A stretch of 64,000 nucleotides of DNA, taken from NCBI GenBank assembly GCA_965285935.1, contig OZ260664.1, positions 15,996,001 through 16,060,000 of the forward strand. The letters are read 5' to 3'. Source of the DNA: Ophelia neglecta (lineage: Eukaryota). Under the pieces are notes generated by a model that worked only from the letters and a program-made list of their open reading frames with translations, was not told the origin of the DNA and did not search any database. Made by a program: the position numbers and the translations under genes. This document shows, piece after piece, positions 10,225 through 64,000 of the stretch; position 1 is the stretch's first letter, and each line of letters begins with the position of its first letter.

Positions 10225-10284
10225 CTCGGGAAATGATTCTAATTCACGTCTAATCGGGGGAAGCGAAAACAATGAACATCTTGG

Positions 10285-10415
10285 CTTCGCGCCATCTTGC
10301 TTTGTATTCCCCACCTCTGGTGCTGTGTTTGTGTCACGTGACTGGGCACTGCGCCGCATCCCTGTTAGAGGGCAGCAGCGGGGCTATGAGTGGGCAAGGC
10401 AATGATTCATATTGG
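10285..10415 (-). promoter_or_regulatory. Housekeeping-type promoter of the 10224 gene
   Basis: YY1-type CAAGATGGCG (10290-10299, minus), palindromic E-box/CLEAR GTCACGTGAC (10333-10342), CTCF-like AGAGGGCAGCA (10367-10377) and CCAAT box (10411-10415), within local CpG enrichment. Confidence 0.6.
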
Positions 10416-36000: not shown

Positions 36001-38464
36001 TTGTCGAGTAGACAATATGCGAGTTACGAAAAATATAATACAGTAGTGGTGTGCACCGATTTGGATGGGTGTGTGTTTTTGGGAGGGGGGGGGGGGGGGG
36101 CGGGGTCGCTGGCCAAAGAGACCTCTGTTATACCATATATTATTGAGGTCAACTTTATCTAGAAATTAAACCTTAAAACTGGTGCTTAAATTCAATGGAT
36201 ACGGTCTTTTAATAAATAATGACAAATTCAAGTAACGTGATACTATGATGTGGTCAGTAATTAATAAGGACAATTTATCAAGCAAAGTGAAACAATGTAT
36301 TGATAAAACTGTTAAAAAAAATAATATAATAATATAATATGAGAAGCCGTGAGAGGGTGTCACCTACCCTGAAACAAGAAACAGTAGCCAGTGGAGCAAG
36401 TGAAGACAAGAAGTCCATAGAATAGTTAGTAAATAATACAGGATATCCCCAGAGGCTAAATTATTCCAAGTAAGTGGAAAGCATAGCAGTAGGGGTTCAT
36501 TGGGATACTGTCCCAATATACCACCAATATGCCACAATAAGTGTGTCCCAATGCTTTGTGAGTTTTTGTGTAAGTAGGTTAACGACACTTTAGACAATGA
36601 AGGAATCTTTTCCCCTACTCAATTTGCTATATGATAATGCTAATGTTCTAACAGACCGAAATTCTGCACTTATTCGCCTTTGAGGGTGTTTAACTAATAT
36701 TATTATTGTAGGTATGTCCATATGTTCCTCCTTCTTTCTTCTTCTTCTTGTGGTCGTCGAAAAGGCTCCTCCCGCGGCAGAGACAAAGCTTGGTAAGTAG
36801 TTCAAACCAGATATGTATATATATATATATAGCATTAACACACACTCACTGCTCTAGTAAGGAAATTCAGTCGAAAATTTGTATGTACAAGTAGTGCCAC
36901 GATCTTATTGCAATAATATCCGCCGGAAATAAGTCTGCTGGAAATAACATAAGTTTAATGACAATGTTAACTTATAATACGATATTCCCCCTTTGAGGAA
37001 AGAATGAAGTGAAACTAAATTTTCTTATATGCCAGGACGCACTGATGAAAGCTAGCTACTGTTTTGAAAATGACTAATAAAGGTGTTCTTAAATCTTAAC
37101 CTGTAGAAACATATAGGTAAGCATGCACTATTTGTTTATTTAAATTATTTTTATAGTTTTAATGTCTTGTTAACAATATTAAAACCAAACAAAAACTAAA
37201 GAAATAAACAATTATCTTTAGCAGGGTTTGAATTTATATATAATCATTATTCCCCTCGAAAATCATCACCCCCCTCCCCAGCGTATTTAATGGTGCGTCC
37301 CTATAGAAGTCCTGTTGCGATTTAAACCCAAATTTGTATATCGGGACAATGTTAGCTCCCATGACAACCCGCTGGTTATTGCTGAAATTATCTGAAGGGG
37401 TGCACTATTCCACCATATCTACAATTATTTATACCCCATAAAGCATCATGGTTATTCAACCAGATATAGGGACTTGGCTGAAATGCCAAGATTTCTATTC
37501 CAGGAACAGTTTTGGCAATAGGGCAGCTTCTATGTGGGACTCTCGTCCTTATAATCATGTGTAAATTAAAGATATCTAGAATCATATTTCGACCTGGATA
37601 CGGGCTTCGTGTGGATATGCTATGTAATGATAGGCGCTAAGCAGTGTGAAAGGTGCTATGTTTTGAACAGTTTTTTAAAATTTTTGGCTTCAACGCATAT
37701 GCGTGTCCTATTAAGTACTGTCCTGCATTTCCATATTATTATTTATTGTATTAATTTATCTACCTTTTGATGTGTCACAATGAGTAGAAAAAGCACCAGG
37801 ATTTTTTTCCATGTATGTAGCCACTTAATGCAACTATAAATACGTTTAACTTTACTTATTTTGACAGCCCTTGTTTTTCCTTTAATTTAACTTCACCAGG
37901 CAAATTTTGCGCCATTCATATCGTTGCTGCAGGGTTCGCCGTCCTGAACTCCGTTTTCGTGGTAAATGTGTCAATGAGACGACATCGTATGTCATCATTC
38001 ACAAGAAAGGTATACTATATCATCCTGTTTTTCTATATTCGACTCTCCTATCTCACCTCGCAGATACAATAAGGTATTGACAAGGCTCCAAATTGCAAAT
38101 TCTTGTACTTATTTTGTAGACCAAAAAACTACAACTCCTACTCGAATGTTCTTGTTTTTCTATGCATCTTTCTTATTATCAACTTGTATTGCATGAAATC
38201 GTGACTGTTTTCTAGATATTAGTTTTGAAGCTTCATGACGTCTTATGTCGGTGTTGTCGATGGACTATTGGCGACAGAACTGTTAATGTCGAAATGACGG
38301 CAAGTGGTCATCCAACTGATGACAACACTCATACCACAGCAGCTAAACCCAGAAGTCCTGCTGAAGAATGGCAAATTGTTGCCTTTATTATAAACATTTC
38401 AATGTTTTTTCTCCATTTGGCCATGGTATTATATACTATTAGTTATATTTTACCTTGGCATTGA
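30064..38464 (+). CDS. Divergent nicotinic acetylcholine receptor-like (Cys-loop pLGIC) alpha-type subunit, 435 aa
   Basis: Exons 30064-30167 (signal peptide; least certain), 32568-32751, 32987-33096, 34246-34441, 35262-35363, 35583-35754, 36712-36792, 37900-38009, 38216-38464, all phase-consistent. Motifs: EQRLITDLL, ARP, VWIPDI, Cys-loop CRIEVDNFPFDTQTC, FGSWAY, EWEL, vicinal CC, M1-M4, EEW before M4. AATAAA at 38477. Confidence 0.92.
30950..31495 (+). mobile_element. Degenerate non-LTR (LINE) reverse transcriptase fragment in nAChR intron 1
   Basis: Broken frames encode VDFSRAFDRV..W.KMIAAGIRGK, GECFSPIIFAFLINDL, LYADYCVLF (YADD-derived), VNKSKTK and FLYLG. Confidence 0.8.
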
Positions 38465-41154: not shown

Positions 41155-44100
41155 TTAAATGTGTAAAATGTTCTGCTCATCTGGTTTATCTACCAAGGAG
41201 TCTACAGCAGAAGGACTGGGTGGTTTTTCAGGCTGAGGGGCACTTGGACCGGCGGTAGAGCCACGGCCATCTTGTTTATCCGTGGCCTGGGTTGGACTTG
41301 AGATATCCCCAAGAGCGGTACTTTGAGACTTATTGTGTTTCACAATTTTACGTAGTATCCGAGCCTGGTCCTTCTCTTCTCTATTTTGCTTTTCGGCTAT
41401 TTCCTATTGAACATAGAAAATCAAGTGTATATAGGAGCTTGAGAAGTACAATGATTTCCTTTCATGCACAAAATATATACATTGCAATTACTAAATTTTA
41501 CTCTGCAATTATATCACATAGTTAAAGTCATTTTGAAGACGCTAATTGAATGCATAGTTTTGAAGGAATTTCATAATACCCACATTCTGTCGCATTTTGC
41601 GCTACTCAGGTTAACTTAAACCAACTCATATGTCACTAATAATTAGAACTTCCTGTGAAGCACTAGAAGTTTTGCGTGGTCTAACCTGTTGACGCTGTTT
41701 TTCCAACAAATAATTTATGTTTGTTGCCATTTCCCGGATGCGCGGATCCTCCTCGTTGTGTTTTCTAGAGCTCAGGCATAGCGCTCGATTGGTTGGGAAA
41801 AAATCGTAGTTCATTTCTCTTTTCTGCATAAGAAATAATCTATTGAGTAACGTAACGTAATTGATCGACAAAACACTTCTTTTATGATATTCACAGAATG
41901 TACCGGAAGATTCTTCTATTTTACCAACTTCAGAATGCCCAAGTCACCTTACATTTAAGACATTTTGATGTTCCATAATGAAAAACGTACTTTGTACATT
42001 TCATAATTGTATTCAATAGAAGGATCAGTCATAGTGTTTCTGCGTACATTGGTAAATTCTGAACTTACCAAATTGGCCACATAGTAATCCAGAGCAGTAT
42101 AGTCATTAGAGTTAGTGTTTTCCAGATAAATGAAGTAGTACATGTAAGACCACATATTGTGTTCCTGTTTGTAGTGATAACGAAAGCCCTGAATAAAAAT
42201 GGAAACAAACATAGCAGCTTTAAACTATTGCTCTCGAGATTTTGTGATTTTGTTTAATTTATGTTGTGGTAGGATCGTGGCTTTCCTCGGGATACGAATC
42301 CAAATATTCCAGCAAACCAATTATTTGATTCTAAGCCATATTTCAGCAGAATATTGGAACAGTCGGAAATGTTTGTTCCTGTATATACGATTTTCAAATT
42401 TTACCTTTATTAAAGCCAAAAATGTATTACCTTAGAGTGGTGCTCAAATTCATAGCTTGAAATGCTGCATATGAAACACAAGTCCTGCATATCCTTCCCC
42501 GCTTGATACTACAACGCATATGTACTCAATAAAAACATAGCTCAAGGTATTTCAAGATAATAATATCAATACGGATAACCATCGTGCGGCAGATACGCAC
42601 GCAGTCCGCCGGTTGGGCTGGCTTTCAATGTTTTATTTAGATAGATTGATAGATTGTTGATTAGAAATACCTTGTGTACATGTGTCATATTTATTTATCA
42701 TAAGAACATGGGTAAAAATTATTTTATATGAAATGATTAGAATTAAGATATGACTCACCTTCGTGTCCCTTAGTTCTGAAAACGTGTCCACGATGATACC
42801 AAATATAATATTAAGACCAATCGTGGTAAAGAAGATAAAGAAAGTGACTTGGTACAAGGTCAATAACCCAAATTCATAAAATGAGTTTGATAACTCGTTC
42901 AGTTGAATTATCTGCAAAAGAAGCAATATGGCACTTAAATTGAAGCAATACAACTTAACCGTTTGTGCTCCCATACAATTCAAATTTGGCACTTTTATGT
43001 TTTTTTTATCTCTTAAATATAACCATGCATATTTCTGTTTTCCAAAGGAAATATTTTGAACTAGAAATGAGGTACTGAAGTGACAGAAACAAAAGCCTAC
43101 CTCGGGGAGCATGTCTGTCATACCCCATCTTAACACGGTAACTGTACATTCATATAAATACCGACAGTACAGTTCATTCTTACTAATGAACACAGGGCGA
43201 AAGAAGGCAAACCCCACAAGGGCGTATATGTAAAGTACAATAAAACCGAGAACAGCAACCCACAGCAAAGACTTTCCTAGAAAATGATTAACAAGGTTTT
43301 AAAATGCAATGAGTAGGACGTTTAGTTTGGGATTCTGATATGTAATATTTATATGTGATTTCTAAGAGGTATATGCCTGTAGATGACTCCAGAACGATTT
43401 CGTCATTTCCTTTTAAATCTAGCGTTCTTGCTGTGTAATAAAAAAAGGTGTAAGACTAATTATTAACAGTCTAAAGTAAGGTTTACCGTTCTGGGTTACG
43501 GCTCGGATGACACCTTGCAGGAGTTCATTGATGGTGACAATGTGGAGCAAATGAAATGCAAACAAATACCCGTCCGTAAGTGTTCCACCAATTGACATAG
43601 CCAAAAGTGTCTGAAAGAAACTCAGTAATGTTAGTTTCCATTGAAATAAAATGGATACATTATTGCTTATGGTCGTTTTTGGTTACTTTGGTCTATGTAT
43701 TAAAGTTGCAAATCCTTCCTTGTCTCCGAAAACAGCTAATAGAGTATCGTTTTAAGGAACTTTGGGTATACAAAGGGCGTTTCATTATTCCACTTACAAA
43801 CTGGTAAAAGGTGGCAAAGGAAAAGAAGCGGGTTTCTGATTCCCTGCTAGTGTCTTTAGGTTCCCTCATGTCATCTTCCAATCTGATATCGCCACGCTCT
43901 TGGACAGAGCCAAAATGCCTGTGAAATTGAGAAGATGTTAATCCTATCTTATTATGCTCAATCAGGTTTCACACATTAAGAAAACATGTATATGGACAAT
44001 ACAATTTTAAGAGTGTTCATTTAATTTTGCTGATTTCTGTGCTTTATTAAAAGTTTAATCCTAGTTCAAACCTTTTAAAATAGTTCGATACATTTATAGT

Positions 44101-47100
44101 CAAGCCTGGGTTGGATAAAGACACACAGTAGATAAACTAAAACATTTGGCAGCACAAGAATTGTTCATCACAACCTTCAAGATGTTAACCAATTCATAAA
44201 CAGAGCAGTGATAATAGCACCAGAAAGCAAGAATCAACTCAATGGATTGAATCAACAGGGAACCGAAAGGGACAAAATGCAGGCCCAACACTGTACACCA
44301 GCAAGTTTTATTCTAGCAGTTGTCTCCTTTAAACAACACTCAAACGCTCATACATTGCGGGTAAAAGGGACTTATTACTGAATTATTATTATTTGAAGCA
44401 GCAACTATATAATACATCATGCTTTACCTTATTACGGTCCCACTTATAACGAATATATCAAGGTAAATATAAACAAATACATGATATAATGTTATTTTGG
44501 GGACATGCTCGCTAAGTAGACATTTTTCATTAACAAATGTCTTTTGCAAGAACCAAACCGTCAACCATTAATACAAATGAAAATTTCGTGTTTTCCATTA
44601 TGTCATTCGTTCTTGCAAAGCATACCAATTTTTCATTTTGATTTTAAATTACCTCAAGCCATTATACTGGTTATTTGAATAGCAACTTATTTCTAACTAT
44701 GCTCATCTTTCCCATACAATGATTAGATGCAGCCACACAACACATGAACTGCTTAAATTACTTAAAATAAACTATTTAAAAACTAAATCAATTATTAAGC
44801 AAAAACCATGGTCCATTCATTCCTCAAATTCAATTATTTCATCATACTTTCTCATTGCATATGACCCAACTTTTGTTACATTACTTCCCTAAGATTATAC
44901 TGATTTAATCTTATATTGTATTGAAACTTTAGAAACAACACGATTACTAAGCTGTCATTACAGATAACGAAATAAAAGAACGTATTCGAAAAAGATATAT
45001 TTTTTCTTAAAAGATACAAAGATGAGAAATGTGCGGAAGGAGAACCTTAGATATTTCCATTAAATTCAAACCATAAGTTGAACAGTAGTGATATTTTTTC
45101 TCATATTATACTCACTTCCCAAACCACCTTGATATTCGAGTTGTATCTGGAAGACGAGGGTGCTCCGACAGGAAGTAGCTAATGAGGACCAGCAATGAGA
45201 AGCAATTGTGGACGATACCTAATCCCATCAGTGCCTTGTCATACACACCTTTGTCTATCCTAAAGATGGGCCATGGACTGGAAAAAGAGAAAGCGAAATG
45301 ATGGCTACTATATATCAGTGAAATACGTCTTTTACGACGTATACTCTTATATCTAATAATTTTTAATGAAACTTACTTGCGGATCTCACGAGGTAAGTCA
45401 GAAGCAGTTGGAGATACATCATCTGCTGTGAAAGGAGCAATCCAAGTGCACAACATAAAAATGTTGATCACAACACTAAGGAATATTATAAAAACATTCC
45501 ACATTTTTCTGGAAATAAATAATAAGAATATCTCTTAGAAAGAGGAGGAAAAAAACAACGTTTACTCAATAGTTAACCATTGATACTAGTTGTAAATTAG
45601 ATCTTCACACATTGGATTTCTTTCCACTAGTCGTCAATATCGAACATTTGATCGAACAAGTTTAGATAAACAATTTTGACAATGTCTCCTTACCTTTTGT
45701 TGCAGATGATTTTTGTAATTGGGTTGGAAATGACCTTCTGGTGGTAGGAAATGTCTCTTATGATAACCTTGGACCAGAGCATAAAGTCCCTAATTTTCAT
45801 ACTAGGAGACGATCGATCAATATTCCATTTTAGTTTTTCCTTGATTTCATTCCTTATCAGATTCTATACTCCAGTAATAAATTAAGACATACCGTTAATA
45901 ATTACGTGTTCTTAATTCTTTATCACGCCTAAGGAGAGTACGTACTTGCCAATTATATTTATATACATAGTAAACAACAAGTTGTCCTAGTACACTTGAT
46001 CGTATAACAACTTACACTATCTGGGACATAGAAGTATGCCCTCTGTAAATAATCATCTTTGATAATTTCCACACTGTGAATTCTTGATTGGTAATAGTCC
46101 AACGCCCATACTACGTCATGTTGCTTCTCTTCTTCAAGCAGATTCCCTTAAGAAAAAGCAAGTTTCTTCGCTTGGGAACATTATCCGATTAACGAAAATA
46201 GGTTAAAGCAGCCAAAGCCAGTTTCATTAAATATATATTTACAAATATATAGTTAAAATCAAAAGGGTCGACTTACTACTCAAATTTTACTTTCACTTGC
46301 TTGGAATGAACGTTAGCATTATTAAGTTGACAATTCACTTGAATAAATAAAATAAGTGCTGTAAGCCTTGAGAATATGAGCAACTGTTCAAGTTATACAC
46401 AACTACATGCTCTCGTGATTTGCTTCGTGATTCTCTTATAGTGAAAATGAGAGGCTAAGGGTTGACGTCGATAGGATAAAATGTCATCAAGAGCCAAACT
46501 TAACAAAATGGATTTTATTATAGTTCGTTCATCAAAATTAAAAACTGACCCAAAGAACTTTTTCAAACACGAAATGAAAGGAAAATTACGACCTAACCTA
46601 ATACTTACCCCTTAAGACAGCTAGAAAAATACCATAATAATATTATCAATTTGATATATTCTTATTCGTTTAAATGTCAGTGCTGATGACGATAGGTTTA
46701 CGATGAGAGTTAATGTAGATGGAACAGAGGCATGATAAGAGACAGTATTCTTACCCAGATCTTCTTTTCTAACATCATGAAGTCTAGCGTAGACAATGTA
46801 GAATTGACATCCTACTTTCTTCGCTAAAGTTACCTAAAATATAAATTCATCATATACCAATATTTTCCTGACGTACTTTTAATACTACGATGCCCCGTAG
46901 CGCGGTAGAGCACTGGTAGCATACCCATCCTAAAGCCTTGGGGTCTAGGTTTCGACCCTATACCGGCGGCACCGCGTGGGCCCCTGGGCAAGAACCTTCA
47001 TCTTTCATGTTGGACTCCTTTACTGTAACATTAGTCATTTAGCGCCAGTGCCTGCAAATGGTGAATGCTCCGCAAGGAGTTGAGAATGCTCTGGACAGAA

Positions 47101-50100
47101 CAGGTCCAGTGAACGGGGAGGTAATTGTAAAGTCCTGAGAGCAGGCTCGCCTGGATCAAGTCAATAAGCCGAATACCTTGACCTTTAGCTCAATGGTATA
47201 GACTACAAGTCTTACTTCTTACGGATTTACAATGGAAATATATTCTGATAGGCCTTGCTTTCATTCGAAGATTGTTGTTAATTGGAAATTTGTTCACATC
47301 TTTTTTGAGTTTGAACTGGTATAATTTGATGGGCAAAGGGATTGCATTCATTGACTAATTTATGCATTTTTTGTCTTATTTTTTCCCATCTCCCATATAT
47401 TTTTCAATTTAGCCGATGCAAACTATAGTTCTAACGAATTATGACCTAAGGATATATTACTCACATGGCTTTTGTCATTGTCGAATATTGCAAAATGCTT
47501 GAAAGATGTATTTCGATGATTGAATCTAGACCATTTAGCCTAAAAGAGAACATAGACACGACATAAGATAGGTATTCAGGCATACGACAATGAAATAAAA
47601 GTTTTAGTGGCATTTAGCATCAACCAAGCAGCTCCCACAGACACACAGGCCCTCCTACCTTAACAATATTGCCAGAATAAGATTAACGTACCATCTGTGA
47701 TATGGCGTAGCATCTTGAAATGACGATGTTCAAGGCGTTGATATCTAGAGTATTGGCAATATCCTTAAAAAAGACAAATTTCTGAATAAAACTATTTTTC
47801 ATGTAATAGTTCAAATACTTTCATAAAGGAAAATACCGATTATGAAATATCAACTTTTCTGTCTTTGACATATTCGTATTAATGAATAGTGTATCAGTAT
47901 TTCATTCAGCCATATAAATTGTGCGCGGAATAAGTCAAATCAGATGAAAATAAAACAACAGACTCTATAAACAGCGAAGATAAATGTAATTTTATCTGTA
48001 TTATGTGTTCGCTTAATAGTGTGGCATGGGTATTTGATTTGTACATGACATTATATAAAATATATCTACTAATATATCACAGGATCAGGACACAAAACTC
48101 ACAGTTGCTATTTCCATTGCCTCCGGACCACTCTCTTCGATAAGGGAGATCAAGAGGTCAGCAATAATTTTGTACAGCTTCAGTACCTTTGTGATCATAA
48201 ATGTAACATTAGCTACAATTAGTCAATAAAAGTGCTTTCATTTTATGCTTGGATAACAACGCAGTGAAAATGAAAGAAAACGAAATATAGCATATGCTAT
48301 ATAGCATTTAATACACTCGCTGATATTTTGTCTATCGATTACCTTTCCTATTGGGCAATCAGAGAAAGAATCCCGCCTCAAAATAAAATTGATATAATCA
48401 ACAATTTTGTTATCCAGCGTCACATGGCGGTTTTCCTGGTTGCCCTAAATGAACAAGAAAACGAAAGAAAAGGATTTTTTTTTTGCAATTTATACAAACA
48501 AGAAATTACATAGGAGAAATGAGGCATATATAGTCTATTTTTTGGCATGATCGGGATGTAAACCGCATTGTTTTCTGCTAACATAGCTTTAGAAGTGCTA
48601 ACATAAAACCACCGTTCTTACATAATATTACATAGTTCGATTACCCTTAGAGCATACTACTTATAAAAAATTAATTATAGCGAGGAAAAGAAACTTAATT
48701 TAACAAAGGCAAAGCTGTAACCTGAGTGATTAACAAAACATTTTATTTGATCCATTACGGATCATTTAAATCTCGTCCTTTGGACTTTGATTTAAATGAT
48801 AAGGGAGCACCAATGTCACACTGTCACACTATACAAATATACTTACTGCACACATATCATTCAGACTTTTGAACAATGCATGAGCCAGATCTATAGAATC
48901 TGGGTCAATTTTCGTATACAGTACACCCGTGTACTGAGCTACTGAAGCTACCAAATTGAAGCCATGGAGATTATCTGGCTGTTCCCGACAATAGTCCTGA
49001 AATTTCAATTACAATTTAGGTGATAATATTTTTTATTGTAGTGTCTCCTGGTTCATATTTCACAGGCTAGTTTCAGTTTTCTTTTGTCATAAGTTTATGT
49101 GTTCTTGATGTATCGCGAAGGGGGGCTAGGCATTTTTCTTAACCGGACTGCTAATGCGCCTGCTGCAGTTTGCTTTCTCAAAATATTTCAAAACCTTGTT
49201 TCCACATAAGTGCTTTATCATTATGAAAAGGGGTTACTTTTTAAAGCAACAAAGCAACAAATATAAAAAAGTCATTGAAATTTCATTTCTTGTCTGAATG
49301 GGCTTAAGGGCCATAATTGCAATTGAAAATAAGGCATTAGTCACCATTATTAAATAAAGAAGTGACCACTTGATAATTTACATAGCAAGGCCAACGGATG
49401 AATCGCACGTATTTTTCATAAAAAGCTGGAACTATTAAATTAATTAATCCCTTACCTGCATACCACGGTGATGGCCATCGCAAAAGTTGGCAAGTACTTG
49501 CAGTATCAGTTGCACAGTTGTATCATGCAATTTGCCAATATTTTCTCCATGTGTTTCTGCATCTTGTAGATATTCGTCTACGTGATCTTTCTAATAAGAA
49601 TGAGATTAGAGTTTAAGGTTCAATAATGGAATGACAAAATAAGTCAATAACAATCTACAAACGGCAGTAGACCTTGTTGAATTAAATCATCCACCTTGTA
49701 AATTTGAGATGAAGTCATCCATGCATTATTTGCTTTTCCTTCAAGGTCATCAGTGGAGACAGAAACCTTTCCTTTTCTTTTATTCTTTGGGAAATTCCAC
49801 CAATTCAATGCGTTCTGCATTTTCAAAAAGGTGTGCTTGCATCATACAATCACACAAAATCCGTCATAACGTCAAAGTACAATTTCCTTCAGACCGGAAC
49901 ACCTAATTATACCAACCTTGGACTTCGATTTAGAATCCTCGTTATGACATGCTTCAGCTTTGACCTTTTTCTCCACCTGTCTCCTAAAAAATTGAAATTC
50001 GATGAGAAGATGATAGCAAAATTAGCCTAATGTACAAAAAAGCATAGCGTTTATGTCATGGTTTGAGCTAGTTTTTATGATTAAATAGGTAGTTGTGACC

Positions 50101-53100
50101 GTCGCTTTTGTTAATTCATGTATCAGCATTGTTTACCTTTCTTTAGTTACAATCGCAGAATGTGTCAGGTAATCTTTCACAAACATGAAGAAAACCTCTT
50201 CTCGAGTGCTTATGAAAAAGCGTAATGCAATGTCCTGTATATAAAAATATATAAGTTAACATAGTCCAACAGTTCTTTATGAAAAGGCATAGCAATATAC
50301 TTACAAATTAAAATGGTAGTTATCATTTTGAGAATTTGTATGTTGCTCCCTAACTATGCATATTGATGTCCATTAACATGTATTAAGTGCAAACCAAATA
50401 TGAACACAACTGCATTCAATATATTCATTATCCGCCCTACACTTTCGTGCATTAAATCCAAGTAGACAGATGAAAGTGGAAGTTTTAGCAATGAATACAC
50501 AACCTGTACGCTATTGTTTGCAGAATACAATATAGTGCCGAGAAGGGCAAGGCATTCTCTGAATATCCGCGTATTTTGTAGCGCCATCAATTTGCATAAA
50601 ATGGCGACCAACCCTTTGCTGGTGTATAGATTTTGGAGTTTTCGTATGTTCTTCATCCTCCTGATAAATATAAAGATTCCAGCCAGGATCGAATATTGGG
50701 AACGGAGTAAAGGCGTCCTTTGATTTAAGAGTTGTTATCACTAAAACAGTGAAATTTCTTAAAGGACTAGTACTGTTAAAGGGAAACGAATTATTGTAGT
50801 TGTTAACGGCTTATTATCTGACCTTTTGTACTTTTCACTTGTGATGGCTGATTCTATAGGGACGAGCACAATGTTGTTATGGATCAATCCACGGAGCACC
50901 TGTAGACAGGTCAATTCCAGCTGTCCATCCCCCTTATAATGTCCAGCCATCTTTAGGTTTGATGCAATCCTGAGAATATATAGTAATTGTATTTTATATT
51001 ACTGTGTTTAATACAACACAATCTTGCCTTTATTATCTTATGATAAAACATTGCCTAGGTCACGGTATATCGTTACAATTTAGGATTCTTAATTACTTAA
51101 TTAATGATTGTTGAATTACACAGTAATCAAACATTGTTACTAGAATCAAAAGATATTTAAAACGGTCCTTCCTTACTCCAACTGTTTAATAAGGGAGTCA
51201 ACGCCTTCATATCTAATGTACAAATTAGTGGATTTATCCGAAATAAAACACTGGACCAGGTTTTGAAAATCTTCTTTCAGCGGTAGCTCGGTTGCTGTGC
51301 CAAGTGCAGTGTACTCTGTAGTGAAATCAACAAGATATATTTTAGAATAAATGGCGTCTTAAGTCAAACTGATAATTTTTGCGAGCATATCCATAAACAT
51401 TAGGCCTGAGGGTAAAGGTGCTGTTGGAAACATAATGTCCGATATAATTGTGGGTTTTGCAATTCCCTGCGTTTAGACCATTGGCATTTATGATTTGACC
51501 TTGAAATAAAGATATCAGGACATCGACAGTAACAGGAGATCAGCTTGTTGTTTAACAAAGCTCCTTAAGCATAATTAAGGAAAGTCCGTACAATAAACCA
51601 TGTGCACGTCTATGTATTCGAGGTCTTCATATAATGCCCTTATACAAGGGTACACACAATTTACATGAAATAAAGATCAATCACGAAACATTAATATCAT
51701 CATTAGAATTCGGCATAGTTAATTATATGCCAACAGTTTGCTTGTTATCAGGCACTTATGTTTTACAATTCGATGATTACGGGAACTTTTTATGATCTGG
51801 TTGATAAGTGAACTCATTTAGAATTGGATTAAAAGTTTATGCCATCAGATTGGAAAATGTACAATATGATTATGTCAAACATAAAATGGAATGTAACATT
51901 AAAATATACAGTGTAAACCCAGGAACAAGGACAGGGTCAGATTCAAATGCCTGTAGGGTTCCGGTTTAACAGCTTGTGTTCAGCCATGGACACTAATCCA
52001 ACAAAACAATATTTATGTCTGCAACTTCTGGACGGCATGGAATAACATTTGACGAAAAAAAAAACATTTTAAACCAGCCAACGTTTTGAGCTAGATAAGT
52101 TTCGCCAGCCGTAGCGGATAAAACGCACTGTGACAATTTGTTCGGATGAGTATTTTCAATAAATTCTTTTTGTGTACTAGCTTCTTTACTTTATATTCTT
52201 CCCCTCATGGGGAGAGGTTTTCCTTTCAATTGGTCGTTTCAAACAATTAAACATATATATATCTTGCTACATCAATCGTTAGTAATACCGTAATCAGTTA
52301 TTGTGTTATAATGTGCCTTTGCGCAATTAAAAGGTAGTTTTCATGTGAATTAGTTTGACCTTTCTTACCTAAGTGATGATTCCCGGCACTTCTATTCCCT
52401 AGCTGGTCGGAAACTGTGTTTGGTCTGCTTAGGATTCGCATAACATTTGTTACAAAATCCCTTAACTTCTTGTTTATTGCAACCTCTCTTAGCTCGGCAG
52501 GACTCTCCTGGAACAAAATAAATACTTTACAAGATACAGTAAATTGATAAATGGTTCTCAACCGAATCGAGAAAACAGTAAACGGTATCAGCTGCATACC
52601 GACATAATATCCTGTGCTGTAGATATACGTGTTCTGTCACAATAAATGCGTGACTTGTTCACTTTACGCAAGTCACATTACTTGGTACAATCGAGCAGAT
52701 TTTATACCATTTTCCTCTTTAATATGCAGGGATATTTTTAACCAACCTATAGTTTTGTGTTTATGGAGACACTTATTCTCGTTCGTTCAATTGGATTATA
52801 CAATATTAAGTAGGAAGTTGTAAATGGAATGTCCATGGAGAACTTGAACCGTGCAGCTAATATGGGATCATGCTTACATCGCTTATCATGTTATCTTTAT
52901 GCCGTACTTCTTCGTATTTGTGTGGTATCGGCTTCAAAGTGTCTCTTATTTCCTACAAATAAATAAATGTTTTACCATTGATAAGGGTTATTTTTTTTAA
53001 ATTACGGTATCTTCGTATTTTCCTTAATGTGTTGGTTTGTCGCATATTTGGATTAACGAATACATAACTTACAGCCTCTCCATAACCACATTTTTCCATT

Positions 53101-56100
53101 ATGTTTTCCAACATTATTGTTTGCGTTCTTAACTGGATTTCTGAATCCACAGCCCCGACAATACTTGGATATAATCCCTGAAGCAGGACAGAGGTTAAAT
53201 TGCAACACGTTCAATATTATTCCAAATTAATTGAAGCCCAATAATAAGATATATGTTGTGCCATTCAAGTAGAGAAACAGTTTGACGACGTACTATATAT
53301 TTGTGGATCAATTTATCTAGGAGTTTCTTCTCCCGCTCGTAGAGAGAATTGTATTTGAAAATATCAACCATTCTCTGTAAAACAAAGAAAATACAACAGA
53401 AATAAGGAAAGTTATAGGTGAAATCTTATTCTACAGTGTTGATGCCCTGTTTATTGAAACATGTATTTGAACAGTAGATTTTGTCGATACTTGGATTGTA
53501 TGAAAATTCCTGCCTCGATGAATGGAAGAACTGAATCCAGTAGATAGTGGGATGTAAGCCACAAAAAGCATTCATCTGTCTTCTTCTCTGGTACAAAGCT
53601 AACAGGAAGTGAAAGCATGTGATTACTTATAAGTCACGTTAGCAACTAACACTAATAATACTACATCAACGGTTGTTTTCAAATATCTATAATATCTAAT
53701 ATGTTTCAGTAATCAACTTACGCTCTTCCTGCTCGCTGTCTCTTTGGCAACTTGTGTTTTTTCAAATGTTTTAAACATGTGGTTATATCGCCAATCAAGT
53801 GCCCCACGAAGTTCCATAGTAAGCTGGAAAGTAATTTTAATATTGTCGTTTCCAAAGAATTTCTTGAACGTATTGTTAGCAAATGAAGAATTGAAACACA
53901 TTCATAGCAATTATATGAGTGTATAAATTGGTCGAGCAGCGAGGAGCAAGTTGAAAAGGCGAGGGGCGAGGTGAAAAGCCGAGGGAGAGTCAAAAAAGCG
54001 AGGACAAGGAAAAACAAGTAAATTTATAAAATGCAAGAAGAAAATTGAATACATCATTGGAAAAAAGCTTGTATATTCAATTTGTCTCGAGCATGACATT
54101 ATATAAGCATTGAAAGACAATTGGCAAAGAACGGGAAACGTTCGGACACTGTGTCAGATATACATTTTACTTTTTATCCTGACCCCTCGCTTTTTAAACT
54201 CGGTTCTCGACTTTTCATCTCGCCCCTCGCTTTACAACTCGACCGATTTACACACTCCAGTTCCACATACCTTGAATGTACAATTGATGTTTCAGAGTTC
54301 ACTATTGTTGGGGATAAATTAAGCCAGGTCAGAAACTTCAGAAAGGATCTTTTTAGATTGTTGCTTACGTCCCGATTGTTAAGGATCCCTAGTGTCTCTT
54401 CGATGGGCATGATATTTCCACCAAGAGCGAGAAAGTGTGCAGCATTGTCCTGCAGGGTGTACAATATATGAGAGGGGATGTACCATGTAAGTTTATATTA
54501 AAGGATATATGTTATAAATGCTTAAAACAAGTATAGTGCCCACGGAAAATGTTTTTTTTAAAGACGGTGTTTATGGTATAGATGGGTAGGGCTGAGCCTA
54601 TTTTGTAGTTTAATATGACATGGTATTTAAGGCACATGTATGAACAAATAATGTAGGGCACATAAATAAGTGGATTGATTAGATGTAATTTATCTGGGAG
54701 ATTCGCAGGTCAAATAAATACCTTTGCACAAACAGCTAGCACACAAATGACGTCAACAAATGTTCTCAGAAGACTTTGCCCTCTTTTTGATAATAGGATA
54801 TCTACTCTGGAAAGGCAACAAGGAACATCCGTATGCAACTCACCATTTTAAAAGGTATTCTTGATACTTATTCAAATGAATTAAAATAGTATGTCCTGGG
54901 AGGGGGTGGGGCGGGGGGTGGGGGGTGGGGTACGCCATGTGACATCTCATAGCGACGTTTATTGGTTTCAGGGACATGCTGATTGAAAACACTTGTGCTA
55001 TGTTGGACAATTATGTATACATGGCCGTAAAACAACCATAATTCTCTCACAAATGTAAAAAGAAATTATGGGATTACGGGTGCAAAAAACCAGAATTTAC
55101 GCTATTTTGGCATATTTCACCGAGCCAAGATAAAGCGGAAGAATATTTTCCCACGAAATAGCCCAATTAGGGTCTAGTGAAACCTCATCGCCAGACTTGG
55201 GGAGGGGGAGGTGGGTGGAGGAGACGGGAAATACACATTTGCCATGATAATTATGAAACAAATTAGGTTGCTGCCTATATCAGCTCGCACACCTTTGCTC
55301 GACAGTGGGCAATTAGCGATTTGTGGTAATTATAAGTTTATAACGCATTTATTTGTTCCTTCTCAAATATATTTGTTTGTCACAGTTAACCTGGTGAAAT
55401 ACAAAACGATAAAGTGTGTTATAATTATTTATCAGAGCTTTTCACAGTTAATTTGGGAGTGGACAAGGGTTAAACGAGTGCTTAACCATTTATTGGCTTA
55501 AAGATTTCACTAATTTAAGAATCACGCGGGTAAAGGTTCACTGACCCCCCCCCCCCCCCCCCCGCCAAATAAACATGTCACAAGAATTACAAACCTTTCT
55601 TGGTGTGGACATTCAAATAGTCGAAATGATTTTGCGGAAATCTGTTCAAGAGCTGATTTCATGAACATGTACTGGTTTCTTTTGTTGATCGTTTGTCCGT
55701 CCATCAGGATTAAGGATAAAATGACCTCAAAAATCTCAGTTACTTGTTTGTTCTCTATGGTGATCCTCTGAAGTTTGATTACATGCCGCTGTTCTATTCT
55801 ATTGCACAAGGTGTGGTTGTGTACAAAGATCTGTAATATCAAACAATGTTCACTTCAACGTTTACCTAAAGCAAAAATTCTATCAGCCACAAAATCTATC
55901 AGCCACAAAGAACAAATTACAGGCAGCTGTTAGGGAACAAATTCTTAATAGATTATTAGTAATGAGTTAGCGCTATTATGTAAGAAGATGTAATGATGTA
56001 CCTCTTTTATAGTTTCCACCATGCAAGCCAACGCCCATCCGCAATCGAGTAAGGTATCAATATTCAGAAAGAGAAATTCCTGAATGTACTGGTTTTTGTG

Positions 56101-59100
56101 GCAAATCATTTGAAGCAACTTCAGGGAGTGCCGCATAAGAGATTCAAATTGGACATCGGATGCCTTAGGTTTAACAATAGAAAAGAAGAGAACTTTTGAG
56201 TTATCTTTGACAAAGGATATTGTAATTTTGACTGAATAACAATGAAAGTAATGTACGCACTCCATTCCTGCCTTCCTTGTCCATCTTAAGCATTTTCAGC
56301 AGGACCTCGTGAACTCCTTGATTAACCATCATTCTTTGTCCAACAAAAGACACAGTTTCTGGCCTTTCACTGTCTGACACTTGACAAAATCTGTTCAAAA
56401 TAACACATTTTATAAAACCTGTTCGTTTGAATATTAAATAAAAATGTATTAGCTTGTTTACAAAAGTGTGGCTAATCTTTATACTAAAATAGAGCTATTT
56501 TATTACAAACTGGATGCAAATTTATAATTGTGTTTTATTTACACCGATTTTAAAAAGAAAACACCACATACTGATTGAATTTAGCAAGAATAGCATTTGC
56601 CACTTGTATTTGGTCATCATGTATCTTCACAGCTACTGTCCGCATTAGAAGAGGCATGAAAATCCGGATCTCTCCCAGCATCTCACAATGCTTATCGTGC
56701 AGCAAAAGCTATATTCAAAGAATGGATTTTCCTTAAAGAAATACCTTAAGGATAGGTGAGGCATGGAAATAAATGTTTTTGCCATGAAAATGATTTGACA
56801 CGTATAACTTCCTGGCAAATAAACCAATTCAATTACCTGTGAGCGTTGAGCAGCCTTCAACAATTCTTCTTTGGCTGAGTACTCCCTGGACAATATTCCT
56901 AAAGACTTTGACGTCATTTTGGCGCAATCATAGTTTGCTAGGTCCTACAATTAGAACAAAATACATGTCGCAGGAAAAAGTTCCAACACAAAAGGGTATT
57001 GGAAGTCAGTTTTAATAAACCCTAAATAAGAATAGGATTATTCTAGCTAGCTATTACCTTTACCTTCAATACAGGCACCAATTTATCAAATCCAACAGCT
57101 ATGTATTCCTTCAATAGTAATTGAAATAGTCGATCCAATTCTTCTCTTGGTGTCCGCAGAAATCTAACAGAAAAATAAATCAGAATTATTTTATGCATAT
57201 TTAATTTTTGTGCTGTTCCTGGTCGGTAAATTAATGGGACTGATATACTGATATTTTGGCAAATTGTTGTCTGCTTTTATCATAAAATTTGAGGTCAAAT
57301 AGAAACAAATGCCTAGATTTAAAGAATAATTTACCAATTTTGGCCGTTAACTCTATCTTTAGATAATATCCTTTATCTTAGAACCGGGTATCGTGGTTAT
57401 AGTTCAGATATAAAAACATTTCGGAAAGAAAACACGCATACGCTGACTTACAGTTATGGACACGCATAAAATAATGTTTCAATCGGCCAGTAAATTCCAA
57501 AAATACATTTCGTACAATAGGGCTAATGAGTATCAAGCCATGTTCAAAAAACAAATAAAACAAATAAGGCCATAATCAAGAAATTTTCGTTAGCTAATAA
57601 CTCTCTATTCGCACCCAGATACATAGTTTCAAGTCTAACATACACAGTAAATTTTATTTGCGAAATTCTCCTGTTCTCAAAAGTTACTTGGTTTACACTA
57701 CTTACAAAAGAAAAAGTTTCATCCTCCTTGATTCAGTGCCGTATATCAAGTCACTCAAAGGGTTCTGGGTTCGTTCCACTGCTTGGTCGTTCTCCAGAGC
57801 CACTTTGAAATGAGCCATGAAAATCTTCAAGGTAAGAATTAAGTTTGCTTTTAGTAAATTATTTGAGTTATGTGCTATCACAAATGTGCTATCCAAAGAA
57901 GATAGTTGTTTTCTTCATATAACAGTGTGGTGCTACTGAAAATCTATAATACCTCGCATCTGAAGAACTGCGCCAGTCTCAGGAAATGGTCAACAATTAA
58001 AAGAGCTCTGGAAATATGTACCTACTATATCAACATGGCTAGATTCATAAGCAAAAATTTAGTGGACCCTACAATAGCACTTTCTTAACTTCTTACGTTA
58101 TGAAAAACAACAATTTATGTAGCAAATCAACAGTTCCCGCATTGAAAATAAAACTGATAGCACTTACTGATACTTGATGTCGGCCACAAGACGATTTTGC
58201 TCAGATTTCTCGTATCTTGTTTTGGACCGGTAGATACTCAGTTTGGCCGTAACATCCCGTCGCAAGGCAGAGTTTTTCGTCTTAGAGACTGCTTGGCAAA
58301 TGTCAAAAATATTTTTCCTGGCATTACGTTTTGTTTCTTACGTAGAACTGCGCCTTGTTTCACTTCATGCTTTGAAAGTTGTCAGCATGGGCAGTTTCAT
58401 GTGTGAATATTGCATTGACGTATTGTTTTGAATACTATTGTGTTTTATAGTTTAAAGAGAAGAGAGGAAAGACTAGTGTGTTTTTTGTAATACATATTTT
58501 ATACTGACGTCTTTGTTTATGAAGACATAGACTACAAAAAAGGGTATGACGAAGTGACATTTTGATTCAAATGGCAAACTGCTGTGGCATTACCTTTCTG
58601 CAGTTCAAGTGAGACGTCATTACTTGGCACATCATTATCACCCTTTAATATATCAAAGATGTAGGGGCCAATAAAGTCTGCTTTCTTAGAACTGATGTAT
58701 CCAAAAACTAGTAGGTTATACACCAGTTTCAATACCTGTGATAGCAAAGAAAGGAATAAGTTAACAAATTCAATAATATCAAATACATTTTCAGGTTAAA
58801 AGCTATTAGTCTTATATACCTACAGCTAAAATAAGCTGGTTTTTCTTCACTTCAGAGGCCACTAATACAATGTTTTCATCAAGGAATGTAAACAACCATT
58901 TGTAAATCTTTGGTAGGCGTTCTTCTAGATTGCGGTCAACCTATAAAAAAGATGAATAAATAAAGTCAAAGTCAGTTCATCAATTGGATTTCTATTTGGG
59001 GTCGGTGATGTGTTATGTGTCGATAGTATGTAAATTTCGGCTGTTTTTAACACGATGCTCTATTGCCATTGTTGGGACTGCCGACGTTATGAATCGTGCA

Positions 59101-62100
59101 TAAATAGGTCCTCTTATATTGATTTGGATGTATCGAATGTTTTACATGCAACTTACATATTGTGGTTGCTGGTTGAGCCATTCTTCAGGTGTTTTGTGTG
59201 TATCCAGGCGGTTGTAGTCATAGTTATTCCCTACACAATCTGACAGTGGAGTGTTCTCGCCAACATCGATAAATAATGCTAGATTACAAAGAGCCCACAG
59301 TTATTCATTAATGATCATTTCCGGAGGCAGACTGTGTAACTAAGAAACAATTGATAAAGATTATTTCAATAAAGAACTAAGTAATTAACAAACGTGGCGA
59401 GTTTACAGCTTTCGATTGTTACTATTATTCAGCTGCTGCTTAGCGATAAATTTGAAGAGGTAAATCAGAAAAAATTATAGTAGTGTTGTTTTCCCACGGG
59501 ACCCTCTGAAGCTAAAATTGGATGAACTATATATATTCAAAAAAAGTATTGATATGAGAAGTTATTTAACGAAAAATGAACGCATGGGATAAAATAATTG
59601 TATTAATGATTCGATCATCAAACTTGACATTGTATTGAAAGAATGTGAATGGCTAATAAACCATTAGTTCGAATAACATGCTAAGTATCAAACGGTTAAT
59701 GTATTGCGTTTCAATGATTAGACCATAAAAACCTAGCTTAGCGTCATATGATAGGTAATTAATTTATCACGAAACTGCATTTAAGCTTTAGGTCATACTT
59801 ATTATAAGATCACAGAACATAGCCTTCATCTCAGCAGAAATGGATGCACTCTCCAAAACACCAAGGCAAACCTCAAACGAGATGTAGTCCACAGCAATCA
59901 TCTCAATATTGGTTTGATTGCGTCCCTAAATAAAATTTGACTGGCCTTTTTAAGATGTGGAATCTAGTAAAGCGCTTGCTTTTAGTAAGTTCCATATATA
60001 TTAGACATGTACGACGCATATGCTACCAAATATGCACTATTGGAAAAGTAATGTTAATGTATTAATTTCCAGTGAGAAACTTACTAAACATAGGCACTCG
60101 AATAGTTCTAATTGTTCTTTCAAAAATCCAATTTCGTTTCCAGAAGATGTTCCAGCTAGGTCCTTTAATACAGGAATGAATTAATGCATCTTTATATGAG
60201 CGGTCATACTACACAGATAAGTTGCTTTAATTGGTTTAAGGAAACTAAGAAAGTGATAAACACAGAAAGTTGATTAAGGTTTTAAATGTTTACAATGATC
60301 TCACTTTGAAAAATGATTCTATCGGTTCTTTTTCGGCCGTTTTCTTTCTCCACACATAAACTTTGTGGTCTTGGCCATTGTAGGCGAAATGAAACAGTTT
60401 GTTCTATAAAACAAAACAAAATATGAGTATAAACTGATAACCCCCGACTTTGTTCCATCGGAATGAATGTCCCAACAGATCGATTCGGTACATTTGTGTG
60501 TTGCTTGTTGTAAAATGAATGTACCTTTTTTTGAACGAGCAATCGATGCCCAATGTAGTTTTGGTTCTCAGGTATTGCCACACCGTCACAGACACATAAG
60601 GCTCTCAATAATTGCAGATAGGTATTGTGCTAGACGATAAAATCATATATGAACAACTGTGTGTACGTGGAGAAGGTAAAAACAGGCATGTAAATAAAAA
60701 TACAATGTTGCGCCAGCAGGGTTTGGCTTGTTTGATTAATAACTAATTCAGTGAATAAGGTTAAACAATGTTCACTTCATTTCATAGTCTTATACAATGC
60801 GTCTGACAATGAAATAATATATATGCATATGGATTTAGGTAAACTCATAGATTACTTGAGTTTTTTCTTATGAATGTATGCATTGCTTCGAGAATATAAC
60901 TCTTTAACTAAATAAAAGATACGTGCCTCCGATTTATTTAGCAGTCGTTCAATTTGCTTTGGAGTTATCTTTTCAATCACTTGGCGTTTGTTGGAGAGCA
61001 ATTCGACCAAAAGTTTGGTGATATCAGAATCGGCATTCGCCTACAACAAATGGCAGTTAATTTTCCCTTTTACTGAGAAATACTCATCTGGTATCGGACA
61101 AGTGGGTTTTCATGTCTATCTGTCGCTTCATCGTCAAAAACCAAAACATAAGCAGTGTGTTTTTCAAGTCATATTCGTTTTTTCTCATATATAACGACTA
61201 TAGCTCCGTAATTAACATTATTTCCCAGAAAAGTAACATTAAATGGTGTTTTTAAACAATGACAGTGATATGAATATGAGACACGTCAATGAATTTAATG
61301 TGACGTGTAGTAAAATGAACTTCTTACCGCTGTGCTTATTCTTTCCTGGAAGAAGTCCATATATTTTGATATGTAGAGGCAGCTTTCTATGTTCGAACTG
61401 GTGAAACTCAACAGAAGATCGTAGATAGCGTGGACTGTCCGGTCAAAGGACCTCTCCACCTGGGCATCTCGCATGGCGTTAACGATCCTTAACAACTGGA
61501 TGCACATTGTCAAAACCTAACAATGAAGAAGTTCACACCAATGCTTTTATATGACCTATTGGGACATAGAACGTTAAAAGGAAGGAATATGATTGCTTCG
61601 TGCACAAATAACAAAAGTGAACTATTCACCCGTACTCAATACACGGTATATTTGTAACGCTTACGTTGACATTGACTTATCTCTGTATCAATAAGGACAT
61701 GGAAAGTAGGTTTATGTAATAGAAATCAGGAAAGGCATTCGACCATGTCACGTAAGGCTGGATGGACATACATGGCAACAAGAATAGTTTTCATGTGACC
61801 TACTTGCAAATCCTGGATCATTTTCCTTCTACAGTTGGCAGCTGAGACTTGTCTAAATCGGCGGTTGTCCATTTCAAATCTCTCCTCGTCCATATCATCT
61901 TCTTCTGCCACATATACTCTTAGTTCCGCGAGGGCCTAAGAAAGAGCGTTTGGTAGAAATAAAACAGAATTATATTAGAAGTTAAATAGTCAACTCCTGG
62001 TTACGAAATAATAAATGGCTTGCTAGTATCTGTTTATATTTTCAAAACATGCCAGTTTAAAGAATTCACACATAGTGCTACTCACACTGTATTCAACAAT

Positions 62101-64000
62101 TAAGTGCTAAGTGATTGTTTAGCTCCATCAGGCATCAACTTCGAAGATTACAGAATTCATCATAAATAGAAGACAATCTCATAATCGAGTTGGTATCCAC
62201 TTGCGTTTATTTGACAAAGAATTCTTTCTTTTTTCCAGAGAATTGGTTTAAACTACTTTATTGCTTTAATGCCCAGATAGACCTTGCGGAATCAACCGAC
62301 TTTCTATCATATATGCCACACCAAATATGTAATATATTCTTCTCACCGAATTCAATACTTCCATTTCCAATTCGGATAACTTCCCTTTTGACCTAAGCTA
62401 GAAACAACAACAACAAAAAACACCAACTTTCATAACAACAAAACACGCGGGTCTAGACATATTGATCCTTCAAATAAATAATTAATCTGTTAGAATATTT
62501 CTATTATGGTCGGACTTGATTACCTCTTGCAAGCCATTGAGGAATAATGGAGCTATTCCAATCACAAAGTTACAGTCGGCCAGGAGATTACTGGGAATGC
62601 ATGACACCGTGAAAGCGTCCTGGTAAAACTTCTGTTCGGTGGCAACCATCTTAACAATAAGAATAGATTAAGTTAGATTTTTCAAACACGAATAATCCTT
62701 GTCTGTTGAGAATGTCAACTAATGCCGTGCATCGATCAGTGGTTCCCCTTTGACTGTTTACTAAAATGCCATAAACATACTATGTTGTCCTGTGGTATAT
62801 ATATGTTAAACAAGTTATGCCTTAAGTATTAAAATCTTCAATAAACGAAGTTAATTTTCATGGCAAACTCTTGTATGTAGCTTCTTAGCAACTTACTTTC
62901 TTCCTGGTTTGTCGATCATCGTCATCCTGTTCACATTTAAATGTTGCTGCAAATAAATGAAATTCAACCCTTACTTAAATAAAAATACATTACTAGTTCC
63001 GATCGGCAGAAAAACAAAAACAGGGTATACATAGGCTGATCTACAAGTGAGTATCATCATGTTACCTTCTTATTTACTTATAAAGATACTAAATGCGTCC
63101 CTTAAGGTCACTTAATGATGTAATTAATGCTGGGCATGTTGAGCATATGTATATATTTTGACTTGTCTCACGATATACGTTGCCGGAACTGTGAGAACAA
63201 AAGCGACTCACCGTTTTCACAATGTATCCATCTTCCAGAAATCACGTGTTGTATTCTGACATAAGTTCCATTTTCCACGCTGCCAAATTCTCTTGTCTGC
63301 ATGGTAAAGAAATTTAAGATACTTCTGGTACGATTATTAAATTCTACCAAAAGCCAGCCAAGAAGTGATTTTAGCAAATAAGCATTTGTATTTATAGCTA
63401 TGAAACCCGTTTTATTTGATATTCTACCTTGTGCATCGCGTGAAATCTGAAGATGGTGTTTGGCAGCGCCTCTTCTGAGAGTCCCACTGAGCCATCCTGG
63501 GTGTCCACGTACAGATATCTCCTGGTTGGTACGTGCTTGATTCGAATGGGCTGACCCCACAGCATTTCTTCCCCTGGGTATAGTGGAATAAAATAGCAAC
63601 TTGATGCTTGAAATGTACGGACGAAGCCCAATGTCGTTATAGGGCATATCCTAAATAATTAGGTTTCATTTAACCCTTGACATATATTTTAACATAGCAG
63701 TATGGTCATAACATTAGCACAAAAGAGGCACACAGAAATTTAACATAAATAACTTTATTCCTGGTAGGAGAAGGTATCCCTGAGTTGCAGGACCATTCTT
63801 TTATTGTGCAATAATGCTCCCGTGTATATCATTAAATGAAAGGATAAGTGGTTTCTAATACAACGCATTTACTAATAAAGGGTGCTCCTTTCTGGAAGCA
63901 ACCTAAGTTTAATTTATAATAATGGTATTATTATTACCAGCGAGGATGCTGCTTTCCATTTCCAGTTGCCAGAAGGTTGTGCAGTTAGAAGGGGCGTACA
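41155..64000 (-). CDS. ITPR: Divergent inositol 1,4,5-trisphosphate receptor-like Ca2+-release channel (5' end beyond window; ~2,310 codons here)
   Basis: 58 phase-consistent exons: 64000-63938, 63573-63428, 63296-63212, 62946-62897, 62649-62524, 62397-62347, 61935-61804, 61516-61328, 61040-60927, 60629-60525, 60403-60305, 60162-60085, 59925-59799, 59278-59157, 58940-58824, 58735-58594, 58288-58168, 58007-57953, 57824-57706, 57163-57064, 56944-56837, 56708-56572, 56390-56261, 56163-56002, 55830-55595, 54806-54722, 54449-54271, 53823-53722, 53598-53514, 53374-53294, 53177-53073, 52952-52878, 52507-52369, 51315-51177, 50969-50823, 50660-50504, 50234-50137, 49983-49917, 49814-49695, 49590-49456, 48996-48847, 48444-48343, 48186-48103, 47763-47692, 47539-47465, 46833-46755, 46146-46016, 45863-45694, 45508-45377, 45277-45116, 43918-43798, 43610-43487, 43276-43101, 42911-42759, 42508-42431, 42188-42069, 41823-41686, 41403-41155. 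Motifs: MIR (WGQPIRIKHVPTRRYL, VRIQHVISGRWIH), RIH (LCVCDGVAIPENQ), RIH-associated (FCDGHHRGMQDYCREQ), SVEIIKD, LNIIFGIIVDTFSELRD, CFIC...HYKQEHNMWSY, FFPTNRAL. Confidence 0.93.
46892..47185 (+). mobile_element. tRNA-derived SINE in an ITPR-like intron
   Basis: A-box-like TAGCGCGGTAG and B-box-like GGTTTCGACCC. Then G.CCCTGGGCAAG central domain, ATGCTCCGCAAGGAGTTGAG, and a TGTAAAG..CTGAGAG 3' segment resembling L2-mobilised SINE tails. Confidence 0.65.
53917..54257. mobile_element. Foldback MITE in an ITPR-like intron
   Basis: ~90-105 bp imperfect inverted arms: GAGTGTATAAATTGGTCGAG...GCGAGGGGCGAG.TGAAAAG and CTTTTCATCTCGCCCCTCGC...CTCGACCGATTTACACACTC. Confidence 0.75.

Follow-up and report, generated by a model that had tools for sequence, protein, structure and literature searches.

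What can an IP3 receptor still do when its pore has no glycine filter and its ligand pocket has lost most of the basic residues? The question is raised by a gene, called gene A here, on the minus strand of a stretch of 64,000 nucleotides from Ophelia neglecta (assembly GCA_965285935.1, contig OZ260664.1), the whole of which is referred to as the window. The GGGxGD motif is held to be conserved in IP3Rs and RyRs, where single changes can abolish flux, and it is treated as conserved in the available parts of PMC2995152 and PMC7399828; here, a whole animal subfamily is met without it.

Gene A and the IP3R-B subfamily

Gene A was modelled by spliced alignment, for which a family profile and a paralogue served as guides. 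The predicted protein has 2,637 aa, encoded by 67 exons with zero internal stops; exons 1-9 lie beyond the end of the window, up to 5 kb out, and the introns comprise 63 of the GT-AG and 3 of the GC-AG type. Directly upstream, at about 16,071,400-16,101,600 (G000:C7), there is a tandem twin, also of 67 exons, whose protein is 74% identical to that of gene A and carries the same filter and pocket changes. Intron phases of the two genes are equal in 66 of 66 cases and exon lengths in 58 of 67. From end to end, the model aligns with relatives bearing PF08709, PF02815, PF01365, PF08454 and PF00520, and it has the architecture of the IP3R/RyR superfamily, namely trefoils at the N-terminus, RIH domains and a channel of six TMs at the C-terminus, in a chain of about 2,700 aa. 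The Ion_trans match on the pore exons is under the Pfam cutoff, and sequence matches in PDB are IP3R1-3 first and RyR next. In AlphaFold models, TM5, the pore helix and TM6 are retained, and the top Foldseek matches are IP3R and RyR, a relative, P0164, matching IP3R3 at E=6e-4. Gene A's own model, which includes the intron past the filter, falls under a pLDDT of 50 from residue 59, just past the filter, and gave no Foldseek match at E<=0.001. A wide fold search with the P0164 model returned TRPA1, PKD2 and other 6-TM pores with Z values as high as 10.5, and none of its rows was an IP3R; such a likeness of helical bundles is uninformative. The positions of the features, together with those of the neighbouring genes, are collected in Table 1.

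Table 1. Features of gene A and its neighbours, in positions of the window
Feature	Position	Strand	Basis or remark
IP3R-B gene A, exon 10 (part) to exon 67 of 67	41155..64000	-	spliced alignment
Exon 16; IP3-pocket 503 = Asn, 507 = Lys (kept), 510 = Gln	61804..61935	-	
Exon 17; IP3-pocket 567-569 = Asn-Ile-Glu	61328..61516	-	
Ca2+-site position 1, Asp for hIP3R3 E1882	49471..49485	-	Asp in 95 of 113 family rows
Ca2+-site position 2, Asp for hIP3R3 E1946	48847..48864	-	Glu in the twin and in the family rows listed
Lys aligned to mIP3R2 ATP-site residue K2177	45834..45851	-	R2174 position not Arg
Exon 62: TM5, short luminal loop, pore helix, filter	43101..43276	-	translation, spliced alignment
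Filter segment GMTDMLPE, aa 2385-2392	43101..43124	-	direct translation; GMTDMLPD in the twin
Intron of 189 nt, in frame and stop-free in the assembly	42912..43100	-	8 residues past the pore-helix Gly
Exon 63: luminal linker and TM6 with gate Phe and Val (hIP3R3 F2513, I2517)	42759..42911	-	
Zinc finger, C-x2-C half	42464..42481	-	
Zinc finger, H-x4-H half, and Lys aligned to mIP3R2 ATP-site residue K2584	42150..42176	-	
Cys-loop ligand-gated channel gene	32470-38460	+	Neur_chan_LBD, E=5e-20; tail to tail with gene A
Reverse-transcriptase fragment, short	31153-31362	+	under Pfam cutoff
GMC oxidoreductase gene, multi-exon	16000-24100	-	GMC_oxred_C, E=1e-7
Open frame of 152 aa, acidic and serine-rich	9928-10383	-	no Pfam match

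To which receptors, then, does gene A belong? IP3RB has been described as an understudied subfamily lost in vertebrates, fly and nematode, and one of its members, ip3rb2 (Helobdella model 162846 of the supplement), shows high enrichment in the touch neurons of the leech (Heath-Heckman et al., 2021, PMC7992859, as far as available). Family matches of gene A are found in spiralian, hemichordate, acoel, placozoan, sponge and unicellular holozoan proteins. From 120 listed matches, 12 (near-duplicate isoforms, a shorter model of the same species and two chimeras) were removed and 5 long rows were added to give 113 rows, of which 111 have the gate motif. GGG[LVIMF]G[DE] occurs in 15 of these 111, and all the 15 stand outside a clade of 96 placozoan and bilaterian rows (FastTree 99); 9 other rows outside the clade, including Capsaspora and some sponges, also have no glycine filter. 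The glycine run is thus absent from every placozoan or bilaterian IP3R-B protein sampled, and its loss, which the initial annotation had taken for a peculiarity of a single gene, is a trait common to them. Model 162846 is match P0011, whose filter, GLVGDIFS, has no glycine run, and a second Helobdella model in the available tree file of PMC7992859 is match P0003. In a second tree (mixture model, 34 rows, filter columns removed), gene A and its twin nest in the spiralian IP3R-B group with SH-aLRT 100 and stand among annelid rows (support 87 and 82, not starred) on a stem of 0.93, the nearest row being more than 1.3 changes per site away. Both trees were built without RyR rows and without the leech fragments P0011 and P0003. 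By these sequence comparisons, gene A is a member of IP3R-B, apart from IP3R-A, and the non-canonical ITPR lineage suspected earlier turns out to be this published subfamily.

The subfamily is reportedly one defined by Alzayady et al. 2015, and so is already known. No account of the IP3R-B filter or of an IP3-blind member was found in the literature searched, which excluded that paper; the loss of the filter may be mentioned there. The available text of PMC7992859 contains neither the word 'pore' nor the word 'selectivity'.

A genome search with the TM6 exon gave seven IP3R-B genes, that is, gene A, its twin and five more (the models of C, F and G are partial), and GGGxGD is missing in all seven. 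By pattern search, two glycine filters are found elsewhere in the genome, one in a canonical IP3R and one in a RyR on another contig, so that housekeeping release is supposed to be covered by these genes. A long-branch IP3R-B paralogue near 10.06 Mb (G000:C2) has the filter GFIVSHHD, unlike the other rows seen.

The pore and its rebuilt filter

Exon 62 ends with RWGMTDMLPE and a GT donor follows immediately. TM5, the loop, the pore helix and the filter are all encoded in this one exon, just as the initial annotation had it, and its central claim, that GGGxGD is lacking from the pore, is borne out: the exon reads GMTDMLPE, and GG[VILMF]G[DE] is found in no minus-strand frame of 144 kb spanning both genes. 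On the plus strand of the same 144 kb the pattern has three matches, all of them outside gene A and its twin. The assembly was compared with contigs of three public runs, which derive from a single sample and may be the assembly's own source. Do these reads restore the motif? They do not: in three of three runs the contigs span exon 62 in one piece, where the sole difference among the listed variants is synonymous, and exons 16 and 17 are identical to the assembly in all three. Between 41000 and 46200 of the window, the run contigs vary at many intronic sites, and among the 40 of 69 variants listed there are five coding ones, three synonymous and two amino-acid changing (aa 2208 and 2589).

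Could glycines be supplied by splicing? A hidden alternative exon with a glycine filter does not exist on gene A's strand in the 144 kb. Retention of the intron past the filter is unlikely as well, since an allele with a 1-nt deletion at 43000, present in three of three runs, breaks the frame, and the intron of the twin has an early stop.

Other parts of the pore had also been described earlier. The short luminal loop is really there, but it is a family trait and not special to gene A. The gate helix, which had been called intact, keeps its Phe, but the equivalent of hIP3R3 I2517 is Val, as it is family-wide. The residues of the C2H2 zinc site are present as described. In the gate helix of the twin, Ala occupies a position that is Thr family-wide.

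How many residues has the filter lost? About six had been supposed to be missing. The stretch between the pore-helix Gly and the gate measures 40 residues in gene A. The same length is met in 25 of 25 canonical rows and in 57 of the 103 IP3R-B rows that have a short filter, a count in which at least P0107 and P0108 are mis-anchored and one canonical row is not included; since the span of gene A equals that of the canonical rows, nothing is missing net. Against long-filter IP3R-B proteins, which are the nearest relatives with glycines, gene A scores highest with two residues deleted (10.8, as opposed to 8.3 with six), and so does the family (14.5, as opposed to 7.3 with five). When canonical IP3R-A is the reference, two and six come out level for gene A (12.4 vs 12.3) and five is favoured for the family (13.5 vs 10.5); as far as scores of this kind can tell, the register against canonical rows is ambiguous. 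MAFFT likewise put two gaps in the filter. The intron lies 8 residues past the pore-helix Gly not only in gene A but also in its twin and in the paralogues C, D and E of the same genome, and this shared position supports an ungapped register within the family, where a one-gap alignment slightly outscores the ungapped one before gap cost. In the AlphaFold models of gene A and P0164, the pore helix ends 3 residues past the Gly, which in gene A is at the Thr of the filter motif; in P0164 it is followed by a loop of just two residues and then by another short helix. The loss of the filter stands, but six is the size in only one possible register, and it was probably overstated: animal IP3R-B probably shortened its glycine filter by two residues.

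What would such a filter let through? The residues lining the filter of rat IP3R1 are S2545, G2546 and D2551, and R2544 is paired with D2570; G2546A abolishes flux, D2551A leaves a dead pore and D2551E makes it favour monovalent ions (PMC8149723, available part). Similarly, conduction of IP3R2 is lost by G2498S (PMC13503717, available part). In the register with two residues deleted, the alignment would put Thr, Asp, Met, Leu, Pro and Glu of gene A at R2544, S2545, G2546, V2549, G2550 and D2551, of which G2546 is the narrowest glycine of the rat filter. The position of D2570 is Gln in gene A, and the twin has Asp at that of D2551. From this, the filter of gene A is predicted to be narrower with an inner acidic ring, or else closed; Met at the G2546 position could close it because both G2546A and G2498S abolish flux. 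The filter may also bear a resemblance to those of TRPV channels.

The consensus of the clade is GL(I/V)GD(L/M/I)F(E/D), and gene A and its twin have GMTDMLP(E/D), a filter not seen in other species among the matches listed, which is weak as evidence of absence. Is such a sequence merely drifting? Between gene A and its twin, dN is 0.148 and dS 0.94 overall, giving a dN/dS of 0.16 by NG86 (0.22 by YN00), which is 0.09 over TM5-TM6 and 0.13 in the IP3 core. Over the 20 codons 2372-2391, there are 10 synonymous and no amino-acid differences. Among 56 clade-conserved columns of TM5-TM6, nine are changed in both twins and five of these nine fall in residues 2386-2391; over the whole protein, 262 of 751 conserved columns (35%) are changed in the pair. 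Judging from these codon comparisons, the rebuilt filter is kept under selection.

The IP3 pocket and the regulatory sites

The pocket was mapped through an alignment of P0081 with hIP3R3 and the ligands named in the available parts of PMC10613215 and PMC13503717, the former giving R266, R270, R503, K507, R510, R568 and K569. The second trefoil Arg of the family is located two, not four, residues past R266, and the equivalence of R270 is uncertain. As the remaining one of the 8 pocket positions we take R241. Basic residues at these positions number one in gene A and two in the twin. Among the named ligands K507 alone is kept in gene A, with the equivalence of R270 uncertain as above; the Arg neighbouring K507 is also kept, and the charge of position 569 is reversed from Lys to Glu. 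By comparison, 98 complete database rows have 8 basic residues in 80 cases, 7 in 14 and 6 in 4, and for the paralogues C, D and E the numbers are 8, 8 and 7. Conserved Arg or Lys has been lost at 5 of 7 pocket positions and at 26 of 89 elsewhere (one-sided p=0.034); the pair is divergent everywhere, and by these counts the loss in the pocket exceeds that of other conserved Arg or Lys modestly. Both this loss of most basic pocket residues and the second remodelling of the filter are, so far as the alignments tell, specific to the pair, and neither appears in the initial annotation. It is to be noted that the position of Y567 is Ser in 105 of 113 family rows, so that even for mainstream IP3R-B the binding of IP3 is only presumed.

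Gene A retains the zinc finger, the gate Phe, two ATP-site lysines and acidic residues in the Ca2+ site. The last of these (E1882/E1946/Q1949) reads Asp/Asp/non-Gln, acidic but shorter, and Ca2+ gating of gene A is not assured because Asp replaces Glu and Gln1949 is not kept.

Compared with known channels, gene A shares with IP3R-B (leech ip3rb2) the short luminal loop, the Val gate, Asp at position 1 of the Ca2+ site and the absence of GGGxGD; its IP3R-B relatives have 6-8 of 8 basic pocket residues and the clade filter, whereas gene A and its twin have 1-2 of 8 and GMTDMLP(E/D). With canonical IP3R-A (ITPR1-3; PDB 6dqj, 7t3p, 12ad, 3jav), size, domain order, the TM6 gate helix, the C2H2 zinc finger and the ATP-site lysines are held in common; unlike it, gene A has no GGG(V/I)GD, Thr/Gln for the R2544-D2570 pair, Val for the gate Ile, a short luminal loop and a pocket largely uncharged. 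RyRs are similar to gene A in pore fold and short luminal loop, and according to the available part of PMC3194816 they too lack the basic IP3-binding residues. They form, however, a class with SPRY and RyR repeats and a length of about 5,000 aa that keeps GGGIGD, while gene A is half the size, has no such filter and is IP3R-B by sequence. Homologues of IP3R/RyR are also known from parasites and oomycetes: many IP3-binding residues are gone in the parasite ones (PMC3194816, available part), and, unlike gene A, these homologues keep GGGXGD or GGGLG[G/S] (PMC3194816 and PMC7399828, available parts).

What kind of channel may gene A encode?

Two steps may be read from the tree. Animal IP3R-B would first have lost part of the glycine filter, two residues in all probability, and the pair would then have changed the filter again and neutralised the IP3 pocket on its long stem. 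We favour, with a confidence just short of an even chance, the reading that gene A and its twin encode a conducting release channel that has an altered pore and is opened without IP3, because selection holds the new filter and the downstream gating parts remain. The product would be a cation channel of the ER, putatively tetrameric, with a narrower and altered pore, and Ca2+, ATP or another ligand might open it instead of IP3. A bolder form of this reading, possible though rather doubtful, would make the IP3R-B pair an independently arisen, RyR-like and IP3-independent channel with a newly built, glycine-free filter in which Asp forms a ring and Met a constriction, and animal IP3R-B a third class of release channels with permeation unlike that of IP3R-A or RyR.

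Can the product be silent instead? It might enter tetramers with the IP3-binding IP3R-B paralogues and damp them, because a subunit that is IP3-blind or blocks the pore acts dominantly in a tetramer. Activation is reported to require IP3 on four of four subunits, pocket variants being dominant negative (PMC10952845, available part), and changes of filter glycines in mammalian receptors kill flux (PMC8149723 and PMC13503717, available parts); moreover, the genome has five further IP3R-B genes, three of them with the pocket kept, and TM6 of gene A is close to that of the paralogues. Nevertheless, we consider such a damping subunit unlikely, for the filter letters are identical between the twins at a dS near 1, which is beyond the needs of a plug, and cytosolic domains only 29-43% identical to those of paralogue D may hinder co-assembly.

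It is quite unlikely that gene A is an ordinary IP3R-B evolving fast, one that IP3 would still open with low affinity and that would conduct like its relatives. Trypanosome receptors still respond to IP3, which counts against IP3 insensitivity. The general divergence of 35% of conserved columns, the kept K507 and its neighbouring Arg, the wide variation of filter letters across IP3R-B and the divergent parasite receptors without many pocket residues (PMC3194816, available part) all point in this direction. On the other side, every one of the 98 complete relatives has at least 6 of 8 basic residues, the charge at position 569 is reversed by Glu, and the pore domain is otherwise conserved around the cluster of changes in the filter.

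Very unlikely, and overlapping with the reading of a conducting channel opened without IP3, is a pocket re-tuned to another ligand or to a protein partner as the true opener. Six changed positions share a new letter in both twins and the dN/dS of the IP3 core is 0.13, as this idea would have it, but at 77% twin identity in the region such sharing is not unlikely by chance, and there is no candidate ligand. A decaying duplicate, or an artefact of assembly or splicing, is hardly credible in spite of the long stem branch (0.93) and the two amino-acid changes among the five listed coding variants, since the frame is open over 67 exons in two copies with a dN/dS of about 0.16 and the filter is the same in the contigs of three runs.

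Whichever reading is correct, the gene pair is a natural test of an IP3 receptor that is gated without IP3, or tuned by an IP3-blind subunit, and the conventional IP3R-B paralogues in the same genome are built-in controls. The filters of IP3R-B are also natural variants for what a filter needs, in a subfamily of which one member is enriched in leech touch neurons (PMC7992859, available part).

Further filter variants are found in the IP3R-B fragments P0177, P0164, P0166, P0186 and P0259, and the filter of P0177 ends with Leu-Pro-Asp at the same place as that of the twin. An annelid IP3R-B protein, P0134 of Lamellibrachia, has 6 of 8 basic pocket residues and a filter variant of its own.
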